Notes: generated by a model from the letters alone, not told the origin. A stretch of DNA of 64,000 bases from Planctomycetota bacterium (GCA_038212275.1 JBBQUR010000006.1:160001-224000); one strand, 5' to 3'; counted from the stretch's first letter, positions 26,037 to 51,708 are shown. Numbers and translations: made by a program.

Positions 26037-27884
26037 TCAGGGCGTGATGGTCGTGGTGCTGACCCCGGAGGCGCCGGTGAAGCCGCCGTGGAAAGTGACC
26101 ACCTGCGAGTGGAACACGACGCCGACCGCGCTGGCCGGCACCCAGATCGGCAGCGACCCCAGGCCGCGTCCATCGAGGCTGCCGCTCGAGAGCATCACGA
26201 AGTGCTGCAGGATGTCCCAGCCATTCCACGGGAGGGTCGAGTCGTCGAGCGCGATGAGCAGCGCCCATGACTGCTGGCTGCCGCCGCCGAAGCTCCAGTG
26301 CGCCGAGGCAGCTCCGGGAATGTCGGTCGGGATGTCGAGCCGGGGCGGGGCCGTCTCGATCCACGTGATCGCGGCGCTGTCGCTCGTGCCGCCCGGGCCC
26401 GTGAGCGTGAGCGTGCCGGGGCCGAGCGCGGGGGCGTCCGGCAGCGTGACGAGGAGGTTCTGTTCGTCCGCGGCGGAGAAGGCCAGCGCCGGCACGCCGC
26501 CCGCACTCACGGCGGACACGGCGGACATCCCGCTGCCTGTGATGGCGAGCGTGGCGCCATGGAAAGCTTCCACGCCGGCGGGTGCGAGGGCGCTGATCTC
26601 GGGAGCGAGCGGCGGCACGAGCGCGTTCAGCGCGGCCGCCATGTCGATGCGCCCGTGCGCGACCCAGGTCCCGACGTCCACGGCGCTGCTTTCCAGCGCG
26701 GCCCGCACGAGCAGGGCGCTGCTCGGATTGCGCGTGCCGCCGAGCCGCGCGTAGAGCAGGTCCGCGGCGCCCGCCACGAGCGGGCAGGCCATCGACGTGC
26801 CGTTCATCGTCGTGTAGCCGCCGTCCTTGTACGTGGAGTAAATGGTCTGGCCCGGCGCGGCCACGTCCACCCAGCTTCCGTAGTTGGAGAAGGATGCACG
26901 GCTGTCCGAACTGGTGGACGCCGCGACGGCGATCACGAAGTCATGCGCGGCCGGATAGAACTTCGTGGCCACGCCGTCGTTGCCGGCCGCCGCGACGAGC
27001 ACGCAGCCCGCATCGCGCGCCGCCTGCAGCGAGGTGCGGATGGCGGGATCGTTGTAATTGCTGCCCCACGACATCGAGAGCACGAGCGCGCCCCGCGCGA
27101 CGGCGTCGTCGATGGCGGCGACGAGAGCGCTCGTCGGGAAGCTGCTGTTGCCGCAGCGGTAGCTCGCGAAGCGGCCGGCCCAGGCCGCGCCGGCGACGCC
27201 CACGCCGTTGTCCGTCTCCGCGGCCGCGATGCCGCAGCAGTGCGTGCCGTGGCCGTAGCTGTCCGTGGGATCGTTGTCGCCGGCGTAGGTGTCGAGGCCC
27301 CACGCGTAGTGGCCATCGAGGTCCGGGTGCGTGGTGTCCACGCCCGAATCGATGACGGCGACGACGGCGGCCGGGTCGCCCGTGTAGATGGCCCAGGCCT
27401 CGGGAGCGCGGACCTTCGAGAGGTTCCACTGGCTGCTCCACTTCGGGTCGGCCGGCACGGCGCCGGGGACGACGGCCGGCAGCGCGACGACGGGCCGGTG
27501 CAGCACGTTGGGCTGGGCGAAGCTCACGTCGGCCGTCGCCTGGTAGCGCGCGATGAAGGTGTCGAGGTCCGAGCCGGCAGGCAGCGCGACGCGCGCGAGC
27601 GACGCACTCACGGCGCCGAGCCGCTGGCAGCCCAGCGCGGTGTGGCGCGCCTGCTGCTGCGCGGCCGGCGTGCCGGGCTGGAACTGCACCAGCAGCTCGC
27701 CCGCCACGACCTGCTGGCCGCGCCACGTGGCGCTGGCGAGGTTCGGATCCGGGCGGTTCTGCGCGGAGAGCATCGCCGTGCAGCCGAGCTGCAGCGCACA
27801 GGCGATCAGCACCCGCAGGAGGCGTCGCACGGCGGGAGGGTTCGGCGGAGGCGAGGGCTGGCACATCGGGACGGACTCCGGCAT
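26037..27884 (-). CDS. Exported S8 (subtilisin/thermitase-like) serine protease with Ig-like/IPT region and C-terminal domain
   Basis: Catalytic VIDSG, GHGTH, GTSMA; AAAGN oxyanion; signal peptide and propeptide; exact start uncertain. Confidence 0.93.
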   Translation of the reverse strand: MPESVPMCQPSPPPNPPAVRRLLRVLIACALQLGCTAMLSAQNRPDPNLASATWRGQQVVAGELLVQFQPGTPAAQQQARHTALGCQRLGAVSASLARVALPAGSDLDTFIARYQATADVSFAQPNVLHRPVVALPAVVPGAVPADPKWSSQWNLSKVRAPEAWAIYTGDPAAVVAVIDSGVDTTHPDLDGHYAWGLDTYAGDNDPTDSYGHGTHCCGIAAAETDNGVGVAGAAWAGRFASYRCGNSSFPTSALVAAIDDAVARGALVLSMSWGSNYNDPAIRTSLQAARDAGCVLVAAAGNDGVATKFYPAAHDFVIAVAASTSSDSRASFSNYGSWVDVAAPGQTIYSTYKDGGYTTMNGTSMACPLVAGAADLLYARLGGTRNPSSALLVRAALESSAVDVGTWVAHGRIDMAAALNALVPPLAPEISALAPAGVEAFHGATLAITGSGMSAVSAVSAGGVPALAFSAADEQNLLVTLPDAPALGPGTLTLTGPGGTSDSAAITWIETAPPRLDIPTDIPGAASAHWSFGGGSQQSWALLIALDDSTLPWNGWDILQHFVMLSSGSLDGRGLGSLPIWVPASAVGVVFHSQVVTFHGGFTGASGVSTTTITP

Positions 27885-27944
27885 CGGGCGGATGTCCCGT
27901 TCTTCGGCACGCTCGCGTCGTGCCCTGAGCTCAATCGCGGCGAT

Positions 27945-28676
27945 TCAGTCGGCGGGGCGGCCTGCGGGGCCCGCGCCGGACTTGCCGCCGAGGCCGGCCG
28001 CGGCGGCCTGCGCGCGCTGCTGGGCGCGCCGGTGGCGGATGACCACGCCTTCGACGAGGAAGACGACGTCCTCCGCGATGTTGGTGGTCTGGTCGGCCAT
28101 GCGCTCGAGCTGCCGGCTGGCGGAGAGCAGGTCCACGCAGCGCTCGACGCTGGCCGGCGCGCTCTGCATGCGCGCCTGCAGCGCCGCGAAATTCTCCCGG
28201 TGGATCTCGTTGACCTGCCGGTCGCGCGCGCAGACGTCGCGCGCCAGCTCGGAGTTGCGCGAGACGAGCGCGTCGAGCGCGTCGTGCAGCATGACGCGCA
28301 CGACCTCGGTCATGCGTTCGAACTGCAGCGGGAGGTCGAGCGGGTCGTGCGCCGCGAGGTCCAGGGCGCGCTCGGCCATGTTGCAGGCGAGATCGCCGAT
28401 GCGCTCGAGGTCGTTGTTGATCTTGAGCACGGCCGTGATGTAGCGGAGATCGGAGGCGACGGGCTGGTGCAGGGCGAGGATGCGCAGGCACTCCTCGTCC
28501 ACGTCCAGCTCGACCATGTCGATCGAGTCGTCGGCTTCGAGCACGCGGCGCGCGAGATCGACGCGGCGCTGCGTGAGCGCGGTGGTCGCGTTGCGCGTCG
28601 CTTCCTCGACCATGCCGCCCATGCGCAGGATGCGCTGACGCAGCAGCTGCAGGTCGTCGTCGAGGGACTTGGTCAC
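27945..28676 (-). CDS. phoU: Phosphate signalling/transport regulator PhoU
   Basis: LALHQPVASDLR, DLERIGDLACNMA, LERMADQTTNIAEDV; GTG overlaps phoR stop. Confidence 0.95.
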   Translation of the reverse strand: MTKSLDDDLQLLRQRILRMGGMVEEATRNATTALTQRRVDLARRVLEADDSIDMVELDVDEECLRILALHQPVASDLRYITAVLKINNDLERIGDLACNMAERALDLAAHDPLDLPLQFERMTEVVRVMLHDALDALVSRNSELARDVCARDRQVNEIHRENFAALQARMQSAPASVERCVDLLSASRQLERMADQTTNIAEDVVFLVEGVVIRHRRAQQRAQAAAAGLGGKSGAGPAGRPAD

Positions 28677-30628: not shown

Positions 30629-30739
30629 CGTCGTGGCTGCTCGGTGGGGCGACGGGCGTCGCCCGAGGTCTGATGAACGAGGCGTTTCGAAAGGGAGCCG
30701 TCGCGGGTCAACTGTCGTCGCGGGCCCGATGCGGCCGGA

Positions 30740-31745: not shown

Positions 31746-31799
31746 GGCGGTTTTCATCGTGCCCATCCCTTCACAGGCACCTCCGGAGACCTCGGATCC

Positions 31800-33110
31800 A
31801 TGAGACAGCTGTTTCGCCTTGCTCCCGCCACGCTCGCCGCGCTGCTCGGCGCGCTGCCCGCAGCCACTGCCGCCCAGGCCACGGATGCCAGCACGGTCGA
31901 TGTCGCCATCCTCGACATCCTGCGTGCCCGCGGCATCATCGACAGTGCGCAGTACGAGGAACTCGTGGCGCTTGCGCACGAGAAGGCAGCCTCCGCGTCT
32001 TCGGAGATCGACCTCATCGAGGGCAGGCTCGCACGGCTCGCGGCCCCCGATCCGACGCTCAGCATCGACGGCGGCAAGCCAGGCAAGCTGGTGTTCAAGT
32101 CCGCGGACGGCAAGTGGTCTCTCGGCGTGAACGGCATGCTGCAGGCCCGCGCGGAGTACGGCAATTCGAACGATGACAGCAAGGACGTGAAGAACTACAG
32201 CGACGCGCGCGGGCGGCTCAGCTTCGATGGCACGGCCGGCGCAGAGAACGTCACGTACAAGTTGGAGCTGAACACCTCCACCCAGAGCACCTCCAGCTCG
32301 ACCTCGTCGACGAAGAATTTCTCGCTGGAAGACGCGTGGGTGAACTGGGGCTTCGAGAGCGGCGCCAACCTGAAGTTCGGCCAGTTCAAGTTTCCGCTCG
32401 GTCGCGAGGAACTGACATCCTCGAGACAGCTCGAGTTCGAGGAACGCTCCATCGCCTCCAACCAGTTCGCTCCGTCGTTCGAGCCGGGCGCCATGGTTCA
32501 CGGCACGGCCGGCAGCGGCGAGTGGGAGTACTACCTCGCGTCATCGAACGGTCAGGGCACGGGAGCCAGCAATCCCTCGGGCAGCAACCAGAACGGTCTG
32601 CGCAACGGTTTTCGCGTGGTCTACAACCCGCTCGGCCCGTTCAAGCTGGAAGGCCCTGCCTTTCAGACCCTCGATGACGGCGCCACGAAGCTCGGGCTCG
32701 GCTTCGCCCTGAACAAGAACAGCGACTCCACCGGCAAGAACACGGTGACGCCGGGCGCCGACACGACGACGATGGACTTCGAGGCGCAGATGTTCAGCGG
32801 ACCGTGGGCGCTGCTGGCCGAGCACTACGACCGCACCTCGAACCTGCCGGGTGGCGCGGCCGACGTCGACGATGACGGCAACACGTTTCAGGTGGGTTAC
32901 TTCCTGGTGCCGCACCGCTGGGAGCTCGTGTCGCGCTACTCGAACATCAACTTTCAGGCGAGCCCCGATCAGAGCGAGCAGTCCCTCGGCGTGAACTACT
33001 ACGTGGACAAGCACAACGGCAAGTGGTCGCTGAACTTCAACAAGCTGGACAATCAGGGCTCGAGCCCCGACACCAATCAGCTGCAGCTCCAGTACCAGCT
33101 CATCTTCTGA
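31800..33110 (+). CDS. Phosphate-selective porin, OprO/OprP family
   Basis: Signal peptide, GQFKFPLGREELTSSRQLEFEERS motif, C-terminal LQYQLIF; divergent from phoBRU. Confidence 0.85.
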   Translation: MRQLFRLAPATLAALLGALPAATAAQATDASTVDVAILDILRARGIIDSAQYEELVALAHEKAASASSEIDLIEGRLARLAAPDPTLSIDGGKPGKLVFKSADGKWSLGVNGMLQARAEYGNSNDDSKDVKNYSDARGRLSFDGTAGAENVTYKLELNTSTQSTSSSTSSTKNFSLEDAWVNWGFESGANLKFGQFKFPLGREELTSSRQLEFEERSIASNQFAPSFEPGAMVHGTAGSGEWEYYLASSNGQGTGASNPSGSNQNGLRNGFRVVYNPLGPFKLEGPAFQTLDDGATKLGLGFALNKNSDSTGKNTVTPGADTTTMDFEAQMFSGPWALLAEHYDRTSNLPGGAADVDDDGNTFQVGYFLVPHRWELVSRYSNINFQASPDQSEQSLGVNYYVDKHNGKWSLNFNKLDNQGSSPDTNQLQLQYQLIF

Positions 33111-33345: not shown

Positions 33346-34914
33346 ATGAACTTCCGTCTTCCGCTTTCGATGGTGTTCGCCGGTCTCATGGCCGCCCCCG
33401 CTTTCTGCCAGGCCACTCCGATCGGCACCGTGCGCGTCGCGACGGCTCTCGCGCGACCCGTGTGGGTCGGCCAGGCCCCGGGCGAGACGGATCCGACCCG
33501 CCTCTTCGTGATCGAGCAGAAGCAGGCCGACATCCACATCGTGCTCAACGGCGTGGTGCAGGAGCCGCCTTTCCTCGACCTCACCAATGCGAAGGTCGTG
33601 ACCAGCGGCAACGAGCAGGGACTGCTCGGCATGACCTTTCACCCCGACTTCCAGAACAACGGCCTCTTCTACATCAACTTCACGTCGGCTTCGGGCGGCG
33701 CCACGATCGTCGAGCGCTATGGCGTCATCGGCACGCCGGCCACCGCAACGGCGGCGGACGTGTCGTCCGCAACCGTGATCATCGGCCCGATCACGCAGCC
33801 GCAGACCAATCACAATGGCGGCAATCTCGCCTTCGGCCCCGACGGCAAGCTCTACATGGGCATGGGCGACGGCGGCAATTCCAATGACACCGGCCCGGGT
33901 CACGTGACCGGCGGCAACGCGCAGTCGGGCACCACGCTGCTCGGCAAGATGCTGCGGCTGAACGACGACGGCACGATTCCCTCCGACAACCCGTTCCTGA
34001 CGCCCGGCGACGGCATCATGGACGCGATCTGGCAGTTCGGCATGCGCAACCCCTGGCGCTGGTCCTTCGACAGCGAGACCGGCGATCTCTGGATCGCCGA
34101 CGTCGGCCAGGACGCGCACGAGGAGATCGACTTCGTCCCCGCGGGCCTCGGAGGACTGAACTTCGGCTGGCGCTGCATGGAGGGCTTCACGTGCACCGGT
34201 CTTTCCGGCTGCACCTGCAACGCTCCGACGCTGATGCTCCCGATCCACGACTACGCGCACACCGGCGGCAACTGCTCGGTGACGGGCGGCGGCCTGTATC
34301 GCGGCCAGGCCATTCCCGATCTCGCGGGCACGTATTTCTTCGCGGACTACTGCAGCAAGAAGATCTGGTCGCTGCGCTATGACGGCGCGACGGTCAGCGC
34401 CTTCACCGACCGCACGGCGGAACTCGCGCCGATCGCCGGCCAGTCGATCGATGCGATCACGTCCTTCGGCACGGACACGAAGGGCGAGCTGTACATCTGC
34501 GACCAGACCGGCGGCGACATCTTCAAGATCGTGCCGAAGAACGCCTTCACCGGACTGGGCTGCGCTCTGCCCGGCATGAACGGCAAGCCGGTGCTCTGGG
34601 CGGAAGGCAACTTCACGGCCAATGGCACGGGGACGATCCACCTGCAGAACGCGCTGGGTTCTGCCAGCTCCGTGCTCTTCGTCGGCCTCGTCGAAGGCGC
34701 CGCACCTTTCAAGGGCGGCGTGCTCAAGCCCGTGCCGGCCATCCTGACCCTGAACCTGCCGGTCGGCGCGAACGGAAAGGTCGACATCCCGTTCCTCATC
34801 GATCCGGTGGTTCCGAGCGGCACGCTCATCGCCTTCCAGTACGCGATCCAGGATCCTGGCGCGGTCAAGGGCGTGGCGCTGTCGAACGCACTCAAGGGCG
34901 TGACCACGCCGTAA
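33346..34914 (+). CDS. PQQ-dependent sugar dehydrogenase (glucose/sorbosone DH beta-propeller) with C-terminal domain
   Basis: EQGLLGMTFHPDF, NHNGGNLAFGPDG, GMRNPWRWSFD, DVGQDAHEEI; GGAGAG RBS; signal peptide. Confidence 0.9.
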   Translation: MNFRLPLSMVFAGLMAAPAFCQATPIGTVRVATALARPVWVGQAPGETDPTRLFVIEQKQADIHIVLNGVVQEPPFLDLTNAKVVTSGNEQGLLGMTFHPDFQNNGLFYINFTSASGGATIVERYGVIGTPATATAADVSSATVIIGPITQPQTNHNGGNLAFGPDGKLYMGMGDGGNSNDTGPGHVTGGNAQSGTTLLGKMLRLNDDGTIPSDNPFLTPGDGIMDAIWQFGMRNPWRWSFDSETGDLWIADVGQDAHEEIDFVPAGLGGLNFGWRCMEGFTCTGLSGCTCNAPTLMLPIHDYAHTGGNCSVTGGGLYRGQAIPDLAGTYFFADYCSKKIWSLRYDGATVSAFTDRTAELAPIAGQSIDAITSFGTDTKGELYICDQTGGDIFKIVPKNAFTGLGCALPGMNGKPVLWAEGNFTANGTGTIHLQNALGSASSVLFVGLVEGAAPFKGGVLKPVPAILTLNLPVGANGKVDIPFLIDPVVPSGTLIAFQYAIQDPGAVKGVALSNALKGVTTP

Positions 34915-34976
34915 GGCCTCACACGGCGGCAGACGACTCCGCGGCCGCCACGGCTGCCTGCGGATCGACGACAAGA

Positions 34977-35006
34977 CGGGCGGCGGGTGGCGACACCCGC
35001 CGCCCG
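34977..35006 (+). terminator. Strong hairpin downstream of the dehydrogenase (probable terminator or 3' stabiliser)
   Basis: Perfect 13-bp stem cgggcggcgggtg-GCGA-cacccgccgcccg; weak U-tract. Confidence 0.55.
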
Positions 35007-35081
35007 CGTCGTTGACTTCCCAAGCCTGCTGCCGTATCCCACACGCCGGCGAGGCCCTCGCGGCCTCGAGCTGACAAACTA

Positions 35082-35212
35082 CACACGGCACCCTCCGCGA
35101 GCGGCCTTCACGGCTCGCGGGGAGCGCATGGGGGAACCCGGTGCAACTCCGGGACTGGCCCGCAACCGTAAGCCGCGCCGCGGCAAGTCGGATTGCCCAT
35201 GCCCGCCGTGGA
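35082..35212 (+). promoter_or_regulatory. Cobalamin riboswitch (compact form lacking the long P6 extension) upstream of btuFCD
   Basis: GGGAA-cccGGTGcAActCCggg-ACTG-cccgcAACcGTAA...AAGtcGGAttgCC core; closing cacgg/ccgtg stem; precedes a B12-type ABC transporter. Confidence 0.88.
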
Positions 35213-35235
35213 GACCTTCGGATGCAGGGTGCGAC

Positions 35236-36192
35236 ATGACATCTGCCCAAGACGCGGTGGCGCGACGGACCAGGCTGCATGCCTCGTGCTCCGCGCTCGT
35301 GGCGATGCTGCTGCTGTCGCTGCAGTTCGCAACGCCCGGCTGCGGCCGTGAGCCGGTTCAAGCCGCCGACCTGCACCTGCCGGCGGCGCCTCAACGCATC
35401 GTGCCCGCCAGCGCGGCGGCGGTGGATCTGGTGTGCGCCCTCGTCGGTCCGGAGCGCATCGCCGGGCTGCCGGCGCAAGCGCTCGACTACTCGGGCCTGC
35501 ACGCACGTGGCGCCGCGGGAGAACCCTATCTGCGCCTGCCCCAGTTCCAGGCCTACGCGGCCGAACCGTTGCTCGCGCTGGACCCCGACCTCGTGCTCGC
35601 GGACAACTGGCAGCTGGCCGACACGACCGCGCGCTTGCGCGAAGCCGGCGTGCCCGTGCTCGCTCTCACGGCACTCGAATCGTATCGGGACGTGCGGTCG
35701 AGCGTCACGCTCCTGGGCGAGGCGCTCGGCGTGCCGGAGCAGGCGCGCCTCGTCGTCGCGGATCTCGATGCGCGCGTGGATGCGCTGAAGTCCAGCGGCG
35801 GGCAGCGTGCGGGACACACCGTGCTGGCCTACAGCAATGGCGGCGCGGGCGGGTGGGTTGCAGGCGCCGGCACCGCGGCTGACGAGTGGATCCGTCTTGC
35901 CGGCCTGAAGAATGCAGCCGCCGATCGCGTGGGCCACCAGCGCTGCAGCTTCGAGGAACTTCTCACGCTGGACCCCGACCTGCTCGTGGTGAGCGGTCCG
36001 GGCAACTTCGATCGCAAGGGCGCCACCGAGCGCCTGCTGCGAGAGGAACCCGCGCTCGGCGGCCTGCGCGCGCTCGCCGGCCAACGCGTCATCGTGCTGC
36101 CCGCGTGGCTCTACGACACGGCGAGCCAGCACATCGTGTCGGCGGCCGAGGCGCTCGCGCAGGGAGCCGATCGCGCGCTGGGTGGGTCGTGA
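35236..36192 (+). CDS. btuF: Cobalamin ABC transporter substrate-binding protein
   Basis: PQRIV, EPLLALDPDLVL, SFEELLTLDPD (Peripla_BP_2); riboswitch upstream. Confidence 0.82.
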   Translation: MTSAQDAVARRTRLHASCSALVAMLLLSLQFATPGCGREPVQAADLHLPAAPQRIVPASAAAVDLVCALVGPERIAGLPAQALDYSGLHARGAAGEPYLRLPQFQAYAAEPLLALDPDLVLADNWQLADTTARLREAGVPVLALTALESYRDVRSSVTLLGEALGVPEQARLVVADLDARVDALKSSGGQRAGHTVLAYSNGGAGGWVAGAGTAADEWIRLAGLKNAAADRVGHQRCSFEELLTLDPDLLVVSGPGNFDRKGATERLLREEPALGGLRALAGQRVIVLPAWLYDTASQHIVSAAEALAQGADRALGGS

Positions 36193-37307
36193 GCAGCGCA
36201 GGCAGCGAGGCTCCTCTCGCCGGCACCGTGCGCGCCTCGGGCGCCGGTAGCTCGCGGACTTCCTGGCTGTTCGCGGTCTGCATGCTGCTGTGCCTTCCGG
36301 CTCTTGTGCTGCTGTCGTTGCGCACGGGCAGCGCCGGCAGTCTCGGCCTGGCGGAGATCGTGCGCGGCTGCCGTGCCGCATGCGGGGGAGCCGATCCGCT
36401 CCCGGGCGCGACTCAGGTCATCGTCGAGCTTCGGCTCTGGCGCGCGCTCACGACGGCCGGCGTGGGTGCGGCGCTGGCCCTCTCCGGGGCACTGCTGCAG
36501 GGACTGTTCCGCAATGCGCTCGCCTCGCCTGCCGTCCTCGGCGTCACGGGAGGCGCGAGTCTCGGAGCGACGCTTGCCATCCTCGCGCTCGGCGGCGGCG
36601 CTCCGCTGCTGCTCGCCGTGGACGGCAGCCGTGCCGGTCTGATGGTGCCGCTGTGCGCCTTCGTCGGCGCGACGTTCGCGGTCAGTGCGGTCATGCTCCT
36701 GGCCGGAGCAGGCGGCCGCATCTCCGCACCGACGCTGCTGCTCACGGGCATCGCGCTCAACAGCGTGATTGCCGGCGTGCTCGCGCTCCTCTCCGCGCTG
36801 TCCCTGCGCGACTGGGAGGTCTCCCGCGCGATCCTTTCCTGGACCTTCGGCACGCTGGACGACCGCTCGCCGCAGCACGTGCTCACCATCGGCATCGGGC
36901 TGGCCGTCGCGCTTCTCGTCGTGCCTTTCGTGGCGTGGGAGCTGGACCTGCTGCAATCCGGTGAGGATGACGCGCGCTCGCTGGGCGTGCACACCTTCCG
37001 GGTGCGCCTGCTGTGCATCGCGGGCAGCTCGCTCGCCGCCGCCGCGGCCGTGGCCGTCGCGGGCCAGATCGCATTTGTCGGCCTGGTCGTGCCGCATCTC
37101 GTGCGGCTCGTCACAGGCCGCGGCCACCGCTCGCTGCTGCTGCTGTCGCCGCTGGCCGGCGCGGTCTTTCTGGTGGGGGTGGAGTGGGCCCAGAGGGCCC
37201 TGCTCGGAGACCGGGCGCTGCCGCCCGGCGTCATGATGTCGCTGGTCGGCGGGCCGTTCTTCCTCGCGCTGCTGATGTGGCAGCGCAAGGAGCTGGAGAC
37301 GTGGTGA
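36189..37307 (+). CDS. btuC: Cobalamin ABC transporter permease (FecCD family)
   Basis: LALSGALLQGLFRNALASP, GEDDARSLGV, IAFVGLVVPH, GGPFF. Confidence 0.85.
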   Translation: MSSAGSEAPLAGTVRASGAGSSRTSWLFAVCMLLCLPALVLLSLRTGSAGSLGLAEIVRGCRAACGGADPLPGATQVIVELRLWRALTTAGVGAALALSGALLQGLFRNALASPAVLGVTGGASLGATLAILALGGGAPLLLAVDGSRAGLMVPLCAFVGATFAVSAVMLLAGAGGRISAPTLLLTGIALNSVIAGVLALLSALSLRDWEVSRAILSWTFGTLDDRSPQHVLTIGIGLAVALLVVPFVAWELDLLQSGEDDARSLGVHTFRVRLLCIAGSSLAAAAAVAVAGQIAFVGLVVPHLVRLVTGRGHRSLLLLSPLAGAVFLVGVEWAQRALLGDRALPPGVMMSLVGGPFFLALLMWQRKELETW

Positions 37308-38089
37308 GCTCCCTGCGCGGCGACGACCTCGTCTACGAACACCCGGGACCGGTGCGTGCGGTGGACGGCGTGTCGCTGGAGCTGCGGCCGGGAGAGTTGC
37401 TCGTGATCCTCGGCCCCAATGGTTCCGGCAAGAGCACCTTGCTGCGACTGCTCGGCGGCCTGCTTCGTCCCGCCCGGGGCAGCGTGCTCTGCGACGGCAG
37501 GTCCATGTCGTCGATCGGATTGCGCGAGCGCGCCCGCATGCTTGCCGTCGTGCCGCAGTCTCTCGCCACGATGCCTGAAACGAGCGTGGCGGCCTTCGTG
37601 ACCGGCGGTCGTTACGCGCGCATCTCGCCGTGGCGCGGCCCGCAGGCGCGCGACGCTCGTGCCATCGGCTACGCGCTGGAGGCCGCCGATGTCGGCGACC
37701 TCGGCAACAGGCGCATGACGGACCTTTCGGGAGGGCAGCGCCAGCGCGTGCTCGTGGCGCGCGCGCTCGCGCAGGAAGCGCAGGTGCTGCTCGTGGACGA
37801 GCCGACGGCCGCGCTGGACCTCGAACACCAGGTCCGAGTCTTCGCCATGCTGGCGCGCCTCGCCGACCACGAGCGCTCGGTCCTCGTGGTGACGCACGAC
37901 GTGAACCTGGCGAGCCAGTTCGCCGATCGCGTGCTGCTGCTGGCCGGAGGGCGGCTGGTCGCCGGCGGCGTGCCCGACGAGGTGCTGCGCAGGGAGGTCC
38001 TCGAACCGGTCTACGGGCCGCACCTGCACTTCGGGCGCATGCCTCCGCCGGATCAGCGTCCCTTCGTGATTCCCTGGTTGAGGGCCTGA
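37304..38089 (+). CDS. btuD: Cobalamin ABC transporter ATPase
   Basis: GPNGSGKST, LSGGQRQR, LLVDEPT, VTHD. Confidence 0.85.
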   Translation: MSSLRGDDLVYEHPGPVRAVDGVSLELRPGELLVILGPNGSGKSTLLRLLGGLLRPARGSVLCDGRSMSSIGLRERARMLAVVPQSLATMPETSVAAFVTGGRYARISPWRGPQARDARAIGYALEAADVGDLGNRRMTDLSGGQRQRVLVARALAQEAQVLLVDEPTAALDLEHQVRVFAMLARLADHERSVLVVTHDVNLASQFADRVLLLAGGRLVAGGVPDEVLRREVLEPVYGPHLHFGRMPPPDQRPFVIPWLRA

Positions 38090-38190
38090 CGCCGCTCCCG
38101 GACGCCCCGCAGGCTCGGTGAGCCCGGGCCGCCTCCATCGCATGGCGCTGCCCGACTCCATTTCAAGCACGGGCCGGTCGATACGGCCAT

Positions 38191-40734
38191 GTGGACATCC
38201 AGACTTCGCCTTGTTCCCGACCGCTCCTCCCGCAACGCGCCTGGCGCAGCCTGCTGCTGCCCGGCCTGGCGGCAGCCTTCGTCTGCGTCCCGGCGGCCGT
38301 CGTGCCGGCGCAGCTCGCCTTCGTGCCCAACCGCGGTCAATGGGAGGGGCCCGCACTCTTCCGCGCAGAGCGCGGCGAGCAGACCGCGTGGTTCCTCGCC
38401 GACGGATTCGTCCTCGCGCTCGAGCCCCGACCCGAGCACACCGATCCCACGGAACTCACCGGTCGCGGCGTGGCGTTGCGCCTGTCCTTTGCCGACACGA
38501 CACGCGGCCCCGCGCCGCGGGGCGAGGGCCGTCGCCTCGAGCGCAGGAACTGGTTCACCGCGGGCCGCGCGATCACGGAAGTGCCCGCCTTCGACGCGCT
38601 GCGCTACCGCGACGTCTGGCCCGGTGTCGACATCGCGCTGCACGCCGGCGACGACGCCCTCGAGTACGACCTGTGCCTGCAACCGGGCGCCGACGTGTCG
38701 GCCATCGCGCTGCGTTGCGAGGGCGCGCTGGCGCTCGAGCTGGACGACGACGGCGCCCTGCTGCTGCACACGGAGCTCGGCCCGCTGCGCCAGCCCGCGC
38801 CGCGCACCTGGCTCGTGCATGAGGACGGCGGCCGAGAAGAGGTCGTGTGCATGTACAGGCTCCTGGGAGGCAACCGCTTCGGCTTCGAGATGCCGGGCGG
38901 CACGGCGGGGCTGGCAGCCGTCATCGACCCTGTGCTGCAGTGGGCGAGCTACCTCGGCGGCACGAGCCTGGAATACGTGTACGCGGTGACGTGCAGCGAA
39001 GCCGGCCTCACCGTCGCCGGCGCCACGTCCGTGAGCAACTTCCCGACGACGACCGGCGCCTACGACAAGAGCTGGAACGGGCAGCAGGACGCCTTCGTGT
39101 CGCGCCTCGCGGCCGACGGAAGCACGCTCATCTACTCCACGTTTCTCGGCGGGAGCAAGGATGAGGAGGCGCGCGCGGTGACGATCGACGGCCAGGGCGG
39201 CATCGTGATCGCCGGATGGACGTCGTCTGCCAACTTCCCGACCTCGGCCACGGCCTTCGACAAGAGCTGGGGCGGAGGCACCGGCACGCTGCACTCGGAC
39301 GCCTTCGTGACGCGCCTGTCGCCGACCGGCACGGCGCTCGTCTTCTCGACCTATCTCGGCGGCACCAAGGAAGACTTCGCCAGCTGCGTGGGCGTCGATG
39401 GCGCCGGACGCGTGCACGTCGCGGGCAAGACGTCCTCCGCGGATTTCCCGACGACGACGGGCGCCTTCGATCGCACGCACAACGGCGGCAGCAACGACGT
39501 GGGCGACGCCTTCGTCGCGTGCCTGCAACCCGACGGCGCGGTGCTGTACTCGTCGAGCTTCCTCGGCGGCGCCGGCGACGAGTTCATCAATGCCCTCTTC
39601 GTCGGCGATGACAGCAGCACGACGGTCGCAGGCTGGACGTCATCGGCCGGCTTTCCGACGACGCCAGGCGCCCTCGACACGGTGCTTGGCGGCACCTCGG
39701 ATGCCTTCGTCGCGCGACTTCCGGCGGACGGCGCCACGCTGTCCTTCTCCAGCTTCCTCGGCGGATCGGGCGACGACAACGCGCTCGCGCTCGCTGCAGG
39801 CAGCGACGGATCCTTCTCGGTGGCGGGCACGACGCTCTCGACGGACTTTCCCGTGACCAGCGGCGCGATGCAGCAGGCCTGGCACGGCGGCACGTACTTC
39901 GGCGATGCCTTCGTCGTCACGCTGGAGGCCGGCGCGACGGCCGTGCGCTCCGCTTCCTACTTCGGCGGCGCCGGCGACGACGTGGCCACCGGCCTCGGTT
40001 TCACGCCCGACGGCACGCTCGCGCTCTGCGGCTGGACGCAGTCGGCGGACCTTCCGCTCGGCGAAGCGCCGATGGACGCCTCGCTCGGCGGCACGACCGA
40101 CGCCTTCTTCGCGCGCACCGATCCCGCGGACGGCACGCTCATGTCGGCCACCTATTTCGGCGGCCCCAGCCAGGACAAGGCCTACGGTCTGGCGCTCGGT
40201 CAGGATGGTCTCGCGGCGATGGCCGGCTACACGAACTCGGCCGCGTTCCCCGTGACGAGCGGCAGCTACGACACGCACTTCGACGGCTTCGAGGGCCTCG
40301 TCGGCGACGGCTTCATCGCGCAATTCGCGCTCGAACTCGACAGCGGCTCAGCCGCCACCGCCACCTGGGTCGATGCCGGCTTCGCACTGGCCGGGCAGGC
40401 AGGCAAGATGCCCGCGCTGTCGGGGACAGGCAGCCTGGCGCCGCTGAGCCCGGGCACCGTGAATCTCGAGAACGCCGCGCCCTCGGCGCTCACGCTCGTC
40501 ATCAGCAGCTCCGTCGCCGGCTACCTCCCGGTGAAGGGCGGCACGCTCGTTCCCTACCCGATCTTCAACATCCTGGTGCTCGGCACCGACCCGATCGGTG
40601 GCCTCGTCATTCCCTACACGTGGCCCGCGCAGGTTCCGTCGGGGCAGACGCTCTACGTGCAGGCGTGGGTCCTCGATGCGGGCGCGGTGTTCGGGGCGGC
40701 GGCGAGCAATGCGATTGTGGCGACGGCGCCCTGA
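38191..40734 (+). CDS. Exported SBBP-repeat (beta-propeller) protein with C-terminal domain
   Basis: FVPNRGQW N-domain; repeated STYLGG...GxTxSxDFPTTxGAFD...DAFV units. Confidence 0.88.
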   Translation: MDIQTSPCSRPLLPQRAWRSLLLPGLAAAFVCVPAAVVPAQLAFVPNRGQWEGPALFRAERGEQTAWFLADGFVLALEPRPEHTDPTELTGRGVALRLSFADTTRGPAPRGEGRRLERRNWFTAGRAITEVPAFDALRYRDVWPGVDIALHAGDDALEYDLCLQPGADVSAIALRCEGALALELDDDGALLLHTELGPLRQPAPRTWLVHEDGGREEVVCMYRLLGGNRFGFEMPGGTAGLAAVIDPVLQWASYLGGTSLEYVYAVTCSEAGLTVAGATSVSNFPTTTGAYDKSWNGQQDAFVSRLAADGSTLIYSTFLGGSKDEEARAVTIDGQGGIVIAGWTSSANFPTSATAFDKSWGGGTGTLHSDAFVTRLSPTGTALVFSTYLGGTKEDFASCVGVDGAGRVHVAGKTSSADFPTTTGAFDRTHNGGSNDVGDAFVACLQPDGAVLYSSSFLGGAGDEFINALFVGDDSSTTVAGWTSSAGFPTTPGALDTVLGGTSDAFVARLPADGATLSFSSFLGGSGDDNALALAAGSDGSFSVAGTTLSTDFPVTSGAMQQAWHGGTYFGDAFVVTLEAGATAVRSASYFGGAGDDVATGLGFTPDGTLALCGWTQSADLPLGEAPMDASLGGTTDAFFARTDPADGTLMSATYFGGPSQDKAYGLALGQDGLAAMAGYTNSAAFPVTSGSYDTHFDGFEGLVGDGFIAQFALELDSGSAATATWVDAGFALAGQAGKMPALSGTGSLAPLSPGTVNLENAAPSALTLVISSSVAGYLPVKGGTLVPYPIFNILVLGTDPIGGLVIPYTWPAQVPSGQTLYVQAWVLDAGAVFGAAASNAIVATAP

Positions 40735-41102: not shown

Positions 41103-41285
41103 GTGCTCGGCGCGTGATGCTCAGGTGCGGAATGCTCAGCACTCAATGATCAGAACGCAATCCTCAAGCGGGCAATGTTCGGCGTGCACGGCGCAGCGCG
41201 GAACGCCTCGCGCGTGACGCTCAGCTCGAGATGCTGAGCGCGTGCCTCTCAACGCGTAGTTCCCAGCAAGTGCTGCTCAGCGCGG
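41103..41285 (+). repeat. Degenerate 14-15-bp tandem array (core ATGCTCAG)
   Basis: Cores at 41103, 41117, 41132, 41146, 41160, 41175, 41217, 41231, 41259, 41273. Confidence 0.7.
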
Positions 41286-41357
41286 GATGACCATGACGGG
41301 CGGCAGGCACAGCGAATGCGTCACGCAGTGGCGGAGACGGAACGCGTCCGCTGAAGC

Positions 41358-41413
41358 GACTCGCAGTTGGGCAGCACACGACTTCGCAGTTGGGCGCTGC
41401 ATGACTTCGCAGC
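41358..41413 (+). repeat. 22-23-bp direct repeat x2.5
   Basis: gact(t)cgcagttgggc at 41358 and 41380, partial copy at 41403. Confidence 0.75.
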
Positions 41414-41519
41414 GCTCGCGCTCCGCCGGACCGCCGTCATTCGTCTGAGCCACCGCTCCGCCCGAGACTCGGGCCGGGCGCGCTCGCAGTCCTTACGTTC
41501 AACCTACGCAGCGTGCGAC

Positions 41520-41714
41520 GGCGTCGAGAAGCGCAAGCCCCGGGAGTGCTGACCGCCTCGCCTGGCACGGAAAAGCCTGCCTCGGCGAGCGCGGGACGGG
41601 AGGTTTGTCCGGCGCGAAGGGCGCCGCTCCCGGAACCACGACGCGTCCTGTTGCCCCAGGGGCGCAGCGCCGGACAATCCTCCCGCCCCGCGCACCCCCC
41701 GCCCCAAGCGACTC
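41520..41714 (-). repeat. ~200-bp structured REP/MITE-like element, copy 2 (inverted)
   Basis: Reverse complement aligns with 40809-41005. Confidence 0.9.
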
Positions 41715-41772
41715 ACATCTTCCTCGGCCCCAGCGCGGTCAGCACCCCCGGCGCGACCGCGAAACAAAGCCG

Positions 41773-42681
41773 TCACACCGGCGGCTCCACATCTTTGTTC
41801 CGCTGCCTCGCCTCCGCCCGCTGCTTGTCCAGGAAGGCCTGCTCCTGGCTGCGCAGGCGGCGTTGCGCGTCGCGCCGCGACTTGTCGCGCAACGCGGCGT
41901 CGGTGCCCTGCGCGCTGTCCTCGGCGTCCACCCGGTAGTAGCCGACGCGATCGGCATCCTCGCGGTCCGTCGGCAGGCCTGCGAGAAAAGTACCGAGCAC
42001 CTTGCCGCCGGCGCGCGAGATGCTTGCGACCGAGCGCAACACGAGGTCCTTGTGCGTGTCTTCCATGCGCACGACGAGGAGCGCTCCGTTGGTGCGCGGG
42101 ATGAGCACGCAGGCGTCGGTGTAGGGGTTGACCGGCGGCGTGTCGATGAGCACCCAGGTGAAGCGGCGCTTGAGTTCGGACAGCAGGTTCGTGAAGCGCT
42201 CGCTGCCGAGCAGGTCGGCGGGGCTCTTCGGCTCGGCGCCCGCCGCGAGCAGCGACACGTGCGGCACCACCGTGGGTTGCAGGCACGCGGAGAGGGAGAC
42301 CTTGTCCGCCAGCAATTCGGTCACGCCCGGCGTGGCGGGCTTCCCGAACAGGCGCGCCTGCACCGGCTGCCGGAAATCGCTGTCCACCAGGCACACGCGC
42401 GCTCCGGGAACCTCGGCGAGACAGCACGCGACGTTGGCCGCCGTCACCGACTTGCCTTCGCCTTTCTTGCTGCTCGTGACGACGACGGCCCAGGGCCCCC
42501 CGCCCTTGTTGAGCGCGGCAAGGTTCGTGCGGCAGGCGCGATATTGCTCGGCGTGCAGGCTGCGCGCGTCGTGGTACATGACCAGCGCGTCGGACACGCG
42601 CGAGAGCAGACCGCCGGGACGTTCGGCATCGGCGCGCAACTCGCTGGCCGGGCCGCGCGAGGCATCTGGCGTGGTGGTCAT
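41773..42681 (-). CDS. CpsD/CapB-family bacterial tyrosine kinase (soluble BY-kinase)
   Basis: EQYRACRTNL, Walker A SSKKGEGKS, A' LVDSDFRQP, Walker B LIDTPP, GYY near the C-terminus. Confidence 0.88.
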   Translation of the reverse strand: MTTTPDASRGPASELRADAERPGGLLSRVSDALVMYHDARSLHAEQYRACRTNLAALNKGGGPWAVVVTSSKKGEGKSVTAANVACCLAEVPGARVCLVDSDFRQPVQARLFGKPATPGVTELLADKVSLSACLQPTVVPHVSLLAAGAEPKSPADLLGSERFTNLLSELKRRFTWVLIDTPPVNPYTDACVLIPRTNGALLVVRMEDTHKDLVLRSVASISRAGGKVLGTFLAGLPTDREDADRVGYYRVDAEDSAQGTDAALRDKSRRDAQRRLRSQEQAFLDKQRAEARQRNKDVEPPV

Positions 42682-44366
42682 GCGGGGTCTCCGGGCAGGC
42701 CGGCGTGGCGTCGCGCGAGATCGGCGGCACCCAGCAGCAGGTCGTGGTCATGGTCGCGCAGGCCGGCGACGGCCGCGCGTGCCTGCGCCGACAGGCGCCG
42801 GCACGCACCCCGGGCAAGCAGCAGTTCATCGGCTGCAGCTTCCTCGCCACGTGAGGCGACGACATCCGCCGCGCGCGACAGCACCGCCGCCTGCCCGTAG
42901 AGCGCGATGGCCTGGTCGGCCAGGCCGGCCAGCACCAGCTGCCGCTCCTTGAGGCCCGGCCCGTGGCTGCCCAGCGCCGCCGTGACGGTCTGCACGAGGT
43001 CGGCGGTGCCCAGCGAGAGCGACAACGCCTCGCTGCGCAGCGGCGCGGGCACGATCGGCGGATCGGGCGCCTCCGCTCCGCGGGCACGCTTGCCGAAGTC
43101 GCCCGTCGCGGCCGCCGCGCCTCCGGCGGCCAGGCGCCGGCCGGGTTCAGCGATGCCGGCGCCGGCGATCATCAGGCGCAGGATCTCGTTCGTCCCCTCG
43201 AAGATCATGTTCACGCGCGCGTCGCGCAGCATGCGTTCGTACGGGTAGTCGGTGGTGAAGCCGTTGCCGCCGGCGCACTGCATCGCGTCGTTCACCGTGC
43301 GCCACAGCACCTCGGTGCCGAAGATCTTGCAGGCAGCGGCCTCCAGCGCGAGGTCGTCGTGCCCGCCGTCCGCGAGCCCCGTCGTGAGAAAGGTCATGCA
43401 CTCCAGCGCGTGGAGATCCTGCGCGGCGCGGCCGAGCTTCTCGCGGATCAGCTCGAACTCCGCGATCGGCCGGCCGAATTGCCGGCGCTGCCCGGTGTAC
43501 TCCACCATCTGTGCGAGCAGGAAGCGCGAGCTGCCGATGCATCCGCCCGCAAGCCCGGTGCGCCCGGTGTTGAGCACCTCGAGGGCGATCTTGAAGCCCT
43601 GGCCCGGCTCCCCGACGAGGTTCTCCGCCGGCACCTTCACGTCCTCGAAGAGCAGCGGCACGGTGGAGCTGCCCTTGATGCCGAGCTTGTCCTCTTCGGG
43701 CCCCGAGGAAAAACCGTGCGCGCGCTCCACGAGGAAGCAGGAGATGGACGGCTTGCCGTCGGCGCGGACGTGATCGGGCGTGCGCGCGAAGACGGTGACC
43801 AGATCGGCGAAACCGCCGTTGGTGATCCAGAGCTTCTCGCCGTTGAGGACGTAGTGGCGGCCGTCGGGAGTGCGCGTCGCGGTGGTGCGCAGCGCCTGGG
43901 CGTCGCTGCCCGCACCCGGCTCGGAGAGCGCGAAGGCCGCGAGGAGTTCGCCGCTGGCGAGGCGCGGCAGGTAGCGCGCCTTCTGCTCCTCGTTGCCGAA
44001 GAGCAGCAGCGCCTTGATGCCGATCGTGCTGTGGCCGCCGGACAGGATGGCCACCGCCCCGTCGAGCATCGAGAGGTCGCAGCCGATGCGGACGTAGCTC
44101 GTGAGGTCGAGGCCGAGCCCGCCGAAATCCTCCGGGACACGCATCCCGAAGAGTCCCAGCTCCGACAGGCCGTCGATGACGGCGCGCGGGATCTTGTGCT
44201 CCCGGTCGATGGCGCGGCTGTCGATCGAGCCCGCGGCGAAGCGCGAGAGGCTGTCGCGGAACATGTCGACCAGCTCGCGCTTCTCGGCGGCAAGGCGCGG
44301 GTAGGGGAAAAGCAGTTCCGTGCGCAACTCGCCCAGGAACAGCGACTTCAGGAAGGAATCGGTCAT
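42678..44366 (-). CDS. Acyl-CoA dehydrogenase (long, ACAD9/VLCAD-like)
   Basis: FALSEPGAGSDA, LNGEKLWITNGG, EDKLGIKGSST, RRQFGRPI, IFEGTNEILR. Confidence 0.93.
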   Translation of the reverse strand: MTDSFLKSLFLGELRTELLFPYPRLAAEKRELVDMFRDSLSRFAAGSIDSRAIDREHKIPRAVIDGLSELGLFGMRVPEDFGGLGLDLTSYVRIGCDLSMLDGAVAILSGGHSTIGIKALLLFGNEEQKARYLPRLASGELLAAFALSEPGAGSDAQALRTTATRTPDGRHYVLNGEKLWITNGGFADLVTVFARTPDHVRADGKPSISCFLVERAHGFSSGPEEDKLGIKGSSTVPLLFEDVKVPAENLVGEPGQGFKIALEVLNTGRTGLAGGCIGSSRFLLAQMVEYTGQRRQFGRPIAEFELIREKLGRAAQDLHALECMTFLTTGLADGGHDDLALEAAACKIFGTEVLWRTVNDAMQCAGGNGFTTDYPYERMLRDARVNMIFEGTNEILRLMIAGAGIAEPGRRLAAGGAAAATGDFGKRARGAEAPDPPIVPAPLRSEALSLSLGTADLVQTVTAALGSHGPGLKERQLVLAGLADQAIALYGQAAVLSRAADVVASRGEEAAADELLLARGACRRLSAQARAAVAGLRDHDHDLLLGAADLARRHAGLPGDPA

Positions 44367-44509
44367 GGTGCGACCATCATGGCCGCTGCGCCGCCCGCGA
44401 TGAAGCGCCGTCAGCAGCACGTCGCCGCTCCGCATCCGGGATTGACCCTGACGCTGCCGTGTGCGAGAACGTCCCGGTCCGGTCGGGAGCCGGGCATGAT
44501 CTTTTTACA

Positions 44510-44725
44510 ATCCGTCGAGTTTGCCGGCCCTTGGGAAGACGGTGCGAATCCGTCACGGTCCCGCCGCTGTATGCGGAGTCAAAGGGCGCCAGGTGTTGTC
44601 GCAAGCGGTCTCACGACGGCGCGCGACGGACTCCAGTCACTGCTGGCCAGCGAGGATCTCCTCGCGTCCGCCGGCGGGAAGACGCGCCCCGAGGTCAATC
44701 CGCGAGTCAGAACACCTGGCCGATG
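44510..44725 (+). promoter_or_regulatory. Cobalamin riboswitch (full-length AdoCbl/class I type)
   Basis: GGGAAgaCGGTGcgAATCCGtcACgGtCCCGCCGCTGTa ... GtCACTG ... GGGAAGaC ... GAGtCAGAAcACCTGgC (B12 box). Confidence 0.93.
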
Positions 44726-44785
44726 AACGTTCACTCCGTCCCCGGATATGGGATCGGCGTGAATCGTCCGTTGGTGAAGACAAGA

Positions 44786-44824
44786 GGCCGCGCGGGATGC
44801 AACCCGTCGCGGCTTTCGCGTTTT
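44786..44824 (+). terminator. Candidate attenuator/terminator hairpin of riboswitch 2
   Basis: ggccgcgcggg-atgcaa-cccgtcgcggct followed by ttcgcgtttt. Confidence 0.55.
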
Positions 44825-44885
44825 CCGGCGGACCGTTCTTCGGGCAGCTGAGGTTCGACAGGCCGGCACTTTTTCCGGAGCCTGC

Positions 44886-46334
44886 ATGTTTTCCAAGCTT
44901 TCTTCCCGCCTCATCACGCTGCTTGCTTCCCTGCGCGCGACGTTCTCGCGCCCCGGTCCGCTGACCGCACTGCCGTTCGCCCTCGCCCTGCCGTTCGGCA
45001 TTGCCGCGCCATGCGGTATCGCTCTGCCGATCGGCGTCGCCCTGCTGGCGCCAGCGGCAAGTGCCTCCGACATCACCTTGCCGGCGGGCTTCAACGTCGA
45101 GACCTCGCCCGCGTCGTCCGGCAGCGTCGCGGCCGTGCTGCCCGACGGCACGCTCCTCGTCGGCACCGGCTTCTTCGGCGCCGATGAACTCTCCGTGCGC
45201 CACGCCGATGGCACCCAGACGCTGTTCGCCACGGGCTTCGGAAGCATCGCAGGCATCGCGCAGTCCCCCGTGACAGGCGACATCATCGTCGGCGACTCGT
45301 TTTTCCTGCCCGTGCTGCGCGTGCTGCACGACCTGAACCACGATGGCGACGCGCTGGATGCCGGCGAGAACGTGCCGTCTCCCGTGGCGCTGCCCGTGCT
45401 GTCCAACGGCGCCGCGCCGCTGCCCTTCGCGCTGACTTTCCGGCCGGGAACGGATGAGCTCTTCATCACGGGCTCCACGCCCTTCGGCGTCTCCCCCACG
45501 CTGGGCGTCGTCCTGCGTGTCAGCGGCGGCATCGCCACCGTCTTCGCGGATGGCCTCGGCTATGCCTCGGGCCAGGTCTGGGCCGGCGACACGCTGTACG
45601 TGGCTGACCTGAAAGCGGTCAGCTTCGTCGGCCGCGTGCTCTCGCTCAAGGACGGCAATGCCGATGGCGATGCGCTCGATGCGGGCGAGGCCGTTGCCTT
45701 CGCAGGCAATCTCACGGGCGCGAGCGACCTGGTGCTCGCGCAGGACGGCAGCTTCTATCTCTCGGGCCTGTTCGACGACTCGGACTTCAGCGGCACGGTC
45801 GGACGCCTGCTGCCGGACCTCGACGGTGACGGCGCCTCCGATGGCGTCGACGAGCGCTTCCTCGACGGCTTCACCTTCACGGGCGGCCTCACGCTGCTCG
45901 AGAGCGGCGCGGGATTCGTGCCGGGCGCCGGCGGCGACGGCATGCTCGTCGTGCAGGACTTCGCTGCGGAGACCGTGGATCGCGTCGTGCGTTCCGCCCC
46001 GCTTGCCACGCTCGCGCTGTCCGGCTCGGCCGCGAACAACAGCGCGTTCACCATGACGGTCGGCGGTGCGCCGGGCGCCGCGGCGCTGGTGCTGCTCTCC
46101 ACCGACCAGATCGGCCCGACGCTCCACGGCATCGGCGACCTGTGCGCGGGATTCAACTCGCCTTACCTGCTGCTGCCGCTGCCGCGCGTGAATGGCGCAG
46201 GCAGCACGTCCCGCACGCTGCTCTTCCACAGCGTGGAGGGCGCCGTGGGCGTGTCGTTCACGGTTCAGGCCTTCACGCTGCAAGCCGGCGACATCGGCAT
46301 CAGCAACGCCTTCGACCTCGTGCTGGCTCCATGA
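44886..46334 (+). CDS. Exported beta-propeller-like protein with DxDxDG Ca-binding loops and C-terminal domain; B12-riboswitch controlled
   Basis: Long hydrophobic leader; blade-like repeats (TLFATGFGSIAGIA, TVFADGLGYASG, FAGNLTGASDL); DLNHDGD, DGNADGD, DLDGDG. Confidence 0.75.
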   Translation: MFSKLSSRLITLLASLRATFSRPGPLTALPFALALPFGIAAPCGIALPIGVALLAPAASASDITLPAGFNVETSPASSGSVAAVLPDGTLLVGTGFFGADELSVRHADGTQTLFATGFGSIAGIAQSPVTGDIIVGDSFFLPVLRVLHDLNHDGDALDAGENVPSPVALPVLSNGAAPLPFALTFRPGTDELFITGSTPFGVSPTLGVVLRVSGGIATVFADGLGYASGQVWAGDTLYVADLKAVSFVGRVLSLKDGNADGDALDAGEAVAFAGNLTGASDLVLAQDGSFYLSGLFDDSDFSGTVGRLLPDLDGDGASDGVDERFLDGFTFTGGLTLLESGAGFVPGAGGDGMLVVQDFAAETVDRVVRSAPLATLALSGSAANNSAFTMTVGGAPGAAALVLLSTDQIGPTLHGIGDLCAGFNSPYLLLPLPRVNGAGSTSRTLLFHSVEGAVGVSFTVQAFTLQAGDIGISNAFDLVLAP

Positions 46335-48850: not shown

Positions 48851-48882
48851 GCGGCACCGGCGCGCGTACAGGCAGGTGAACC

Positions 48883-51690: not shown

Positions 51691-51708
51691 GATCCAGGGA
51701 GTTCACTC

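Follow-up and report, generated by a model that had tools for sequence, protein, structure and literature searches.

Four otherwise unrelated exported proteins encoded in a 64,000-nucleotide stretch of a Planctomycetota genome (GCA_038212275.1, JBBQUR010000006.1:160001-224000; hereafter the window, at its full length) end in versions of the same C-terminal domain (CTD) of ~105-125 residues. This domain is the mark of a real, very large and undescribed protein family, deployed like a sorting or anchoring tag; the kind of device is known, the family is new. The window (G000:C6:160001-224000; ~72% GC) belongs to a 4.65-Mb assembly, G000, which comprises 40 contigs and is 91% complete. In the following sections, we take an inventory of the family in this genome and across the phylum, compare it with known C-terminal tags, and weigh what it may do in the cell envelope.

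Four Tails of One Domain Superfamily

The four open reading frames (ORFs) singled out in an earlier, sequence-only reading of the window are all recovered on translation where that reading had placed them. All four proteins have a signal-peptide-like N-terminus (judged by eye) and a terminal proline, as had been claimed, and the last 110-125 residues of each lie outside any Pfam or NCBIfam coverage.

Two of the tails are canonical. The first ends a pyrroloquinoline quinone (PQQ)-dependent glucose/sorbosone dehydrogenase (33346..34914, plus strand; Pfam GSDH, E 2.5e-41), with a probable start at the ATG at 33346 and a stop at 34914; an identical 522-aa protein is already in public records. Its layout runs from a signal peptide (MNFRLPLSMVFAGLMAAPAFCQA) through the catalytic domain to the CTD (34546..34911, plus strand; P0002 residues 472-593), which scores 114 bits (E 9e-33) with a hidden Markov model (HMM) of the family and finishes in LSNALKGVTTP before the stop. 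The second ends a protein with DUF7948 and SBBP beta-propeller repeats (38191..40734, plus strand; Pfam DUF7948, 6e-39; SBBP, 3e-8), whose start codon is uncertain and whose N-terminus is signal-peptide-like; here, the CTD (40366..40731, plus strand; residues 726-847; 113.8 bits) finishes in ASNAIVATAP. The homology of these two tails, already proposed in the sequence-only reading, is evident from BLASTP (39% identity over 113 residues, E 9e-14) and from the HMM, which was seeded on both tails and iterated over all six-frame ORFs of the genome, and with which each tail reaches E ~6e-33.

The other two tails are divergent. One belongs to a propeller-like exported protein without a Pfam family (P0004; 44886..46334, plus strand), where it occupies 46002..46331 on the same strand and ends in GISNAFDLVLAP; this type of tail has a single-copy orthologue in 12 of the 12 same-family genomes searched. 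The other belongs to a subtilisin-like S8 protease (26037..27884, minus strand; Pfam Peptidase_S8, 3e-45), which is laid out as a fervidolysin-like prodomain, the S8 domain, a weak TIG-like domain, and the divergent CTD (26040..26357, minus strand; residues ~510-615), with GVSTTTITP as its last residues. A search of 40 relatives found the S8-type tail in 25, each with one to five copies; with G000 included, it is present in 26 of 41 genomes. Neither tail has a BLASTP match to the PQQ or SBBP tails, and both fall under the genome-wide HMM threshold. Scored as isolated tails with the HMM, the propeller and S8 tails obtain 19.9 and 10.8 bits, levels reached by 10 and 16, respectively, of the control C-terminal tails of 1901 non-family genes; most of the high-scoring control tails likewise finish in SN-type motifs.

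The relationship emerges from family profiles, built from the tails of related genomes (S8 type, n=20; propeller type, n=13). The canonical profile, A1, aligns with the propeller-type profile at 96.8% probability (E 2.5e-10) over 107 columns, through the terminal proline, and with the S8-type profile at 95.9-96.0% (E ~5e-9) over 87-102 columns, while the S8-type and propeller-type profiles align with each other at 93.9%. With single sequences, hhalign gives 85.7% for the propeller tail and 1.4% for the S8 tail. The AlphaFold2 models of the PQQ and S8 tails contain 10 strands in identical order, which correspond one-to-one via the hhalign register, and 16 of their top-50 structural neighbours are common to both, such as 7s62_A (alpha-2-macroglobulin), 2pn5_A (TEP1r), and LILRB4.

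It has to be considered that convergence, or chance in sequences of beta-rich, high-GC composition, made the S8 and propeller tails look like the canonical domain, such that only two proteins of the window truly share the domain; the blank BLASTP results, the 1.4% of the single S8 sequence and profile alignments at merely 13-20% sequence identity would fit this explanation, but it is very improbable given three independent profile-profile comparisons at 94-97%, in register to the C-terminus, two confident models with the same strand order and common neighbours, and tails that rank 10th and 16th against the 1901 controls. The four tails are confirmed members of one large undescribed domain superfamily, two of them canonical and two belonging to divergent sister subfamilies, and the description of the propeller and S8 tails as divergent versions proved correct.

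Family Size, Position, and Register

The first HMM search retrieved 109 ORFs at E<=1e-3, 107 of which have the domain ending no more than 15 residues from the stop. On iteration, the HMM converges on 140 ORFs in the 4.65-Mb genome, with one domain each (140 domains), and 134 of them again keep to this 15-residue limit. The register is fixed down to individual residues: the consensus of the last 14 positions reads K-G-V/F-A/S-L/A-S-N-A/G-L-R/K-A/G-T-T/V-P, and of the 79 tails in which the SNA motif is present, 59 have its S at position -9. An invariant Gln and conserved Gly/Pro positions also mark the domain. A terminal proline is found in 86 of 136 family ORFs (counted one search round before the final 140), as opposed to 13% of 6662 long background ORFs. 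The linker preceding the domain is unremarkable in composition. With a median pairwise identity of only 31% among 131 copies, the family members must be old and maintained rather than recent duplicates. Their genes are clustered, 53 of 130 lying within 2 kb of another family gene.

Six of the 140 copies depart from the C-terminal position: five directly follow a signal peptide and one is internal. The five are carried by a metallo-beta-lactamase-fold protein, two giant TIG/GSDH/Kelch proteins, and two proteins of ~370 residues. The expectation that the domain would always be C-terminal, therefore, describes the rule, here and in 149 of the best 150 public matches (which end within 15 residues of the protein end), and fails for these six.

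Two further observations concern unusual carriers. The two giant proteins are encoded by neighbouring ORFs at G000:C4:144058-155149 (1301 aa and 1771 aa), combine TIG, GSDH-like, and Kelch domains, with Malectin in the larger one only, and bear a Cys-containing variant of the domain (YGxGCxG...GC) right behind the signal peptide and not at the C-terminus. Three short ORFs (G000:C2:25658-26113, C28:20004-20543, and C15:87239-87511) contain little beyond the domain and do not begin like a signal peptide; these probably represent fragments of genes or copies with a frameshift.

Novelty and Distribution

At a cut-off as loose as E<=1, none of 21 diverse members matched a relevant model in Pfam or NCBIfam. 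Among PDB chain sequences, a profile search gave nothing useful, the best match being MpAFP RII at E 0.0015; the ESM Atlas holds only unnamed Planctomycetota clusters; and the listings and abstracts returned by a full-text literature search contain no description of the domain. In a profile search against 1.84 billion representative proteins, the clusters matched number 21,551 at E<=1e-3 and 7,336 at 1e-10. Many proteins are matched and no characterised family is, which leaves standing the view of the sequence-only reading that the domain is undescribed; the family extends far beyond the four proteins from which it was recognised.

The domain is also lineage-restricted, as had been suggested, being present in part of the Planctomycetota. 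In the genome set used, the class of the window is represented by one order with 42 genomes in five families. All 41 genomes searched of this order carry the domain, most with at least 104 scored matches. Across a sample of the phylum, 39 of 201 Planctomycetota genomes are positive at E<=1e-5 and 162 have none; the positive genomes include several families outside the window's class, where the spread is patchy.

Cargo and Export

The proteins that carry the domain are extracytoplasmic, mutually unrelated, and enriched in signal peptides, which bears out the association with export and diverse cargo first noticed in the window. By a crude heuristic for signal peptides, 104 of 136 family ORFs score as positive, compared with 104 of 600 control ORFs. 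A Pfam survey of 35 randomly drawn members identified FG-GAP/VCBS proteins (11), beta-helix proteins (2), DUF642 proteins (2, one of which also has CBM_4_9), and 13 proteins without a Pfam family; phytase-like, sulfatase, matrixin (M10)+TIG, SGL/NHL, Laminin_B, MtrC-like multihaem cytochrome, and DUF7948+SBBP proteins are represented once each. Public relatives add CCP_MauG peroxidase, transglutaminase, Kelch, and PPC to the cargo.

Two carriers stand out. At G000:C25:40935-43475, the domain lies at the end of an MtrC/MtrF-like multihaem cytochrome with Big_9; cytochromes of the MtrC/MtrF type sit on the cell surface in Shewanella. At G000:C20:72769-75141, it forms the C-terminus of a polytopic membrane protein of the PMT_2/GT-C type, which has no fewer than eight transmembrane segments. 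The soluble C-terminal parts of GT-C enzymes are on the periplasmic side, so that this copy is probably held in the periplasm. We considered whether the GT-C fusion could be a conserved part of a machinery serving the domain; this was rejected, as an orthologue (to the N-terminal 650 residues, E<=1e-20) was found in just one of 40 relatives (G010), and the sporadic fusion counts as cargo. Nothing relevant flanks the GT-C gene.

Predicted Fold

AlphaFold2 models of the domain are all-beta, with pLDDT values of 95.0 for the PQQ tail and 95.4 for the S8 tail. From these models, we assign the domain with confidence to an immunoglobulin (Ig)/macroglobulin (MG)-like fold, predicted to be a two-sheet beta-sandwich of ~10 strands. 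The best structural neighbour of the PQQ tail is CD109 (Z 8.3, root-mean-square deviation 3.0, 104 aligned) and that of the S8 tail is alpha-2-macroglobulin (Z 10.1, root-mean-square deviation 2.8, 98 aligned). The neighbours retrieved in the VIA-wide structure search are Ig/MG domains of a generic kind, whose Z of 8-10 is common for sandwiches, and Foldseek against the PDB gives only weak generic matches with TM below 0.5, the top one being the O-antigen-binding domain of Wzt (TM 0.43). The sequence-only reading had pointed to Ig-like folds and to the CTD of T9SS, the type IX secretion system, as comparisons worth making: the former resemblance is borne out by the models, while no T9SS CTD appears in the neighbour lists, which are filled with generic Ig/MG sandwiches, so that the two may still be similar.

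A Module Swap among GSDH Orthologues

Orthologues of the window's dehydrogenase show a natural swap of C-terminal modules. Among 79 complete GSDH ORFs from named Planctomycetota records (L020-L098), 24 end in the domain, and three more are added by hhalign at 96.4%. Other orthologues finish with dockerin repeats instead, and several of these come from records labelled Phycisphaerales or Phycisphaeraceae; 9 of 12 scanned tails match Dockerin_1 (PF00404), and 5 of these 9 exceed the Pfam gathering cut-off. Examples of dockerin-type GSDH tails are L058:7123-7392 and L068:7045-7314, and many finish in Cys plus one residue. Four groups of divergent GSDH tails, which align with A1 in hhalign at just 23-54% probability (groups A, C, and E) or 3.7% (group B), were left unassigned. 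At the level of genomes, none of the 14 dockerin-rich genomes (at least 10 matches) in the 201-genome sample is among the 39 that carry the domain, an exclusion that is only suggestive because related genomes are not independent and the match counts are lower bounds.

Search for a Dedicated Machinery

A tag on this scale invites comparison with the machineries of known tags. The T9SS components PorV (NF033710) and PorU (NF033707) have no match in the 91%-complete genome, and Por_Secre_tail has none at E<=0.01, nor does it match any of the 21 members at E<=1 in the Pfam/NCBIfam search; the T9SS was rejected as the machinery on these grounds. SprA (TIGR04189) also gave no match in the genome, although its positive control matched nowhere either. 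Exosortase_EpsH was not found in the genome, and across the sample exosortases neither go together with the domain nor exclude it (15 of 39 positive and 69 of 162 negative genomes). Cohesin (PF00963) is without a match in the genome at E<=0.01, and Dockerin_1 is without a match in the genome at E<=1e-4 and in the 21 members.

Gene neighbourhoods gave little more. The neighbours in the window are unrelated genes and include a polyketide synthase (PKS)/nonribosomal peptide synthetase (NRPS) region, a two-component system, a porin, and parts of ABC transporters, among others. Genome-wide, the only enriched neighbours are pairs of an extracytoplasmic function (ECF) sigma factor and a Ser/Thr kinase-TPR protein, at marginal, uncorrected P values of 0.004-0.02. 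Such pairs, with a kinase of ~1100 residues, lie beside domain genes at G000:C20:57007-60889, C36:3609-7735, and C28:20805-24152, and an ECF sigma gene is found in the window at 48880-49476, 2.5 kb downstream of the propeller gene.

Comparison with Known C-Terminal Tags

In the way it is used, the domain may be regarded as an analogue of the dockerin or of the anchoring half of the T9SS CTD. Like the T9SS CTD (Por_Secre_tail, TIGR04183/PF18962), it is predicted to fold as a beta-sandwich and lies at the very end of numerous unrelated proteins with signal peptides, and in both cases a genome has from dozens to hundreds of such cargo proteins; the T9SS domain is also a beta-sandwich (PMC4804311). 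The differences are considerable: no sequence match was found (0 of 21 members, none in the genome), PorV and PorU are unmatched in the genome, the domain has ~120 residues compared with a 72-position model, the T9SS belongs to a different phylum (Bacteroidota), and a few copies of the domain are N-terminal or internal, with one on an inner-membrane enzyme.

Type I dockerins (PF00404) are likewise small, mostly C-terminal modules on varied exported enzymes that now and then occur elsewhere in the chain, and they take the equivalent position on the orthologous GSDH of other Planctomycetota. In our sample, dockerin-rich genomes and domain-positive ones do not overlap. The predicted structure separates the two, the domain being all-beta and the dockerin a duplicated calcium-binding helical module, as does the genome, which has neither a Dockerin_1 nor a cohesin match. 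PPC (PF04151), the bacterial pre-peptidase C-terminal domain, is another beta-sandwich that ends secreted enzymes, and whether it serves their secretion or their retention is unclear, but none of the 21 members matches it, and in some relatives (P0036) PPC is a separate cargo domain upstream of the tail. Finally, PEP-CTERM/exosortase, LPXTG, GlyGly-CTERM, and MYXO-CTERM tags, short sorting signals on which sortase-type enzymes act, share with the domain their restriction to lineages and their presence at the C-terminus of many surface proteins. They are motifs of ~25-35 residues with a transmembrane helix and, in the exosortase type, a basic tail, whereas the AlphaFold2 model of the domain describes a soluble module of 120 residues, and the exosortase that serves the first of them is neither found in the genome nor associated with the domain across the 201 genomes.

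Proposed Function and Alternatives

We propose a model in which the domain would be exported with its cargo through Sec and fold outside the cytoplasm, acting as a common, non-catalytic localisation tag on very different proteins. It would then dock the cargo onto a shared envelope receptor, either a protein or a glycan, such that proteases, PQQ dehydrogenases, FG-GAP/VCBS proteins, sulfatases, cytochrome c peroxidase, and the MtrC-like cytochrome are retained or organised at the envelope instead of being lost. What the data show is the homology, fold class, strict C-terminal register, signal-peptide enrichment, cargo diversity, copy number, and taxonomic range of the domain. We infer this docking role, the compartment in which it would take place (periplasm-facing or on the cell surface), and the receptor itself, and give the model of a modular docking or retention tag with a common receptor about an even chance of being right. 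Four features favour it: the domain is flexible in its placement, one copy is tethered to the membrane, the cargo includes enzymes of periplasmic type, and dockerins take its place on orthologous dehydrogenases. The six copies away from the C-terminus, together with the GT-C-tethered copy, in particular shift the interpretation from a strictly positional signal to an autonomous docking or anchoring module. The secretion or attachment domain of the sequence-only reading is in this respect upheld only in part: the domain is lineage-restricted, expanded, C-terminal, and found on signal-peptide cargo, but it is not strictly positional (6 of 140 copies lie elsewhere), and the searches made here did not find a machinery.

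Several points speak against a docking tag. Neither a receptor nor a machinery was found among the candidates searched and the gene neighbours, and the sole recurrent neighbours from outside the family, the ECF sigma factors and Ser/Thr kinase-TPR proteins, are regulators. The comparison with dockerins is an analogy of position, and the exclusion between the two modules is weak, since ~2.7 of the 14 dockerin-rich genomes would be expected to carry the domain by chance. Generic Ig/MG neighbours at Z 8-10 convey no functional information. The named relatives are all labelled as metagenome-assembled genomes (MAGs) of Planctomycetota, and the clade is seen only in such records. Lastly, the exact C-terminal register and the terminal proline fit a recognised secretion signal as well, and a terminal proline could merely guard against carboxypeptidases; in our view, it may be either a recognition element or a protection of this kind.

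The first alternative is an outer-membrane secretion pathway of these Planctomycetota that is yet to be discovered and for which the domain would serve as the export signal, comparable to the T9SS CTD. Recognition in the periplasm would rely on the folded shape of the domain and its free C-terminus, and after translocation the domain would be removed or used for attachment. An export signal would account for the position of 134 of 140 copies at the extreme C-terminus in fixed register with a conserved terminal proline, for the same position in the best public matches, for the enrichment in signal peptides, and for the presence of more than 100 cargo proteins per genome across the whole order, and the T9SS CTD would share its sandwich fold. 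We nevertheless consider it rather unlikely: PorV, PorU, and Por_Secre_tail are unmatched, no conserved translocon gene recurs among the neighbours, six copies are N-terminal or internal, the copy tethered to the polytopic inner-membrane GT-C enzyme could not cross the outer membrane, and classic periplasmic enzymes, such as the PQQ dehydrogenase and the CCP_MauG peroxidase, are among the cargo.

It is also unlikely, in our estimate, that the domain has no localisation role at all and is a general ligand-binding module, akin to a carbohydrate-binding module (CBM), or a cap that stabilises the protein and resists proteases, with the C-terminus simply being where it is best tolerated. A generic Ig/MG sandwich, a top Foldseek match that is an O-antigen-binding domain (at a TM of just 0.43), occurrence at either end of the chain, and negative machinery searches are what such a module would lead one to expect. 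The cargo, however, is not mainly carbohydrate-active, as it includes cytochromes, peroxidases, proteases, and dehydrogenases; C-terminal placement of 96% of copies in exact register goes far beyond that of ordinary accessory Ig or CBM modules; and each of the 140 ORFs has exactly one copy, unlike tandem Ig spacers.

Other Features of the Window

The dehydrogenase gene is preceded by a Porin_O_P outer-membrane porin gene (31746-33107) and followed by a Peripla_BP_2 binding-protein ORF (34915-36189), whose open frame begins immediately after the dehydrogenase stop; the arrangement of porin, dehydrogenase, and Peripla_BP_2 looks operon-like. Far upstream, between 7001 and 21420, a 1434-aa ORF encodes a PKS module (KS-AT-KR-ACP), and next to it comes an NRPS ORF of 3402 aa, which contains four condensation stretches, three adenylation (AMP-binding) domains, and three carrier (PP-binding) domains; a further large ORF of this region runs past the start of the window. 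Three long ORFs have no Pfam match at E<=1e-4: 24002-25807 (minus strand, 602 aa), 36416-38356 (minus strand, 647 aa), and 51592-53166 (plus strand, 525 aa). Gene calling based on GC3 passed over the second of these, which is possibly not a gene.

Implications

A tag carried by ~30 genes per Mb of genome and shared by more than 21,000 public clusters is missing from Pfam-A, NCBIfam, and the chain sequences of the PDB. With a name for the domain, thousands of proteins listed as hypothetical in Planctomycetota MAGs would be better annotated, and the exported or surface proteome of these uncultured lineages would be defined. The domain also offers a handle on how Planctomycetota place enzymes in their unusual envelope. 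More tentatively, and with less than an even chance, it may be the cargo tag of a yet-undiscovered envelope sorting system, with a dedicated receptor or translocon, in part of the Planctomycetota. If so, this system would secrete or display well over 100 proteins per cell and would be an independently evolved counterpart of the T9SS or of cohesin-dockerin display, in a phylum with a poorly understood envelope; the existence of a dedicated receptor or translocon would then make it a new protein-sorting system.

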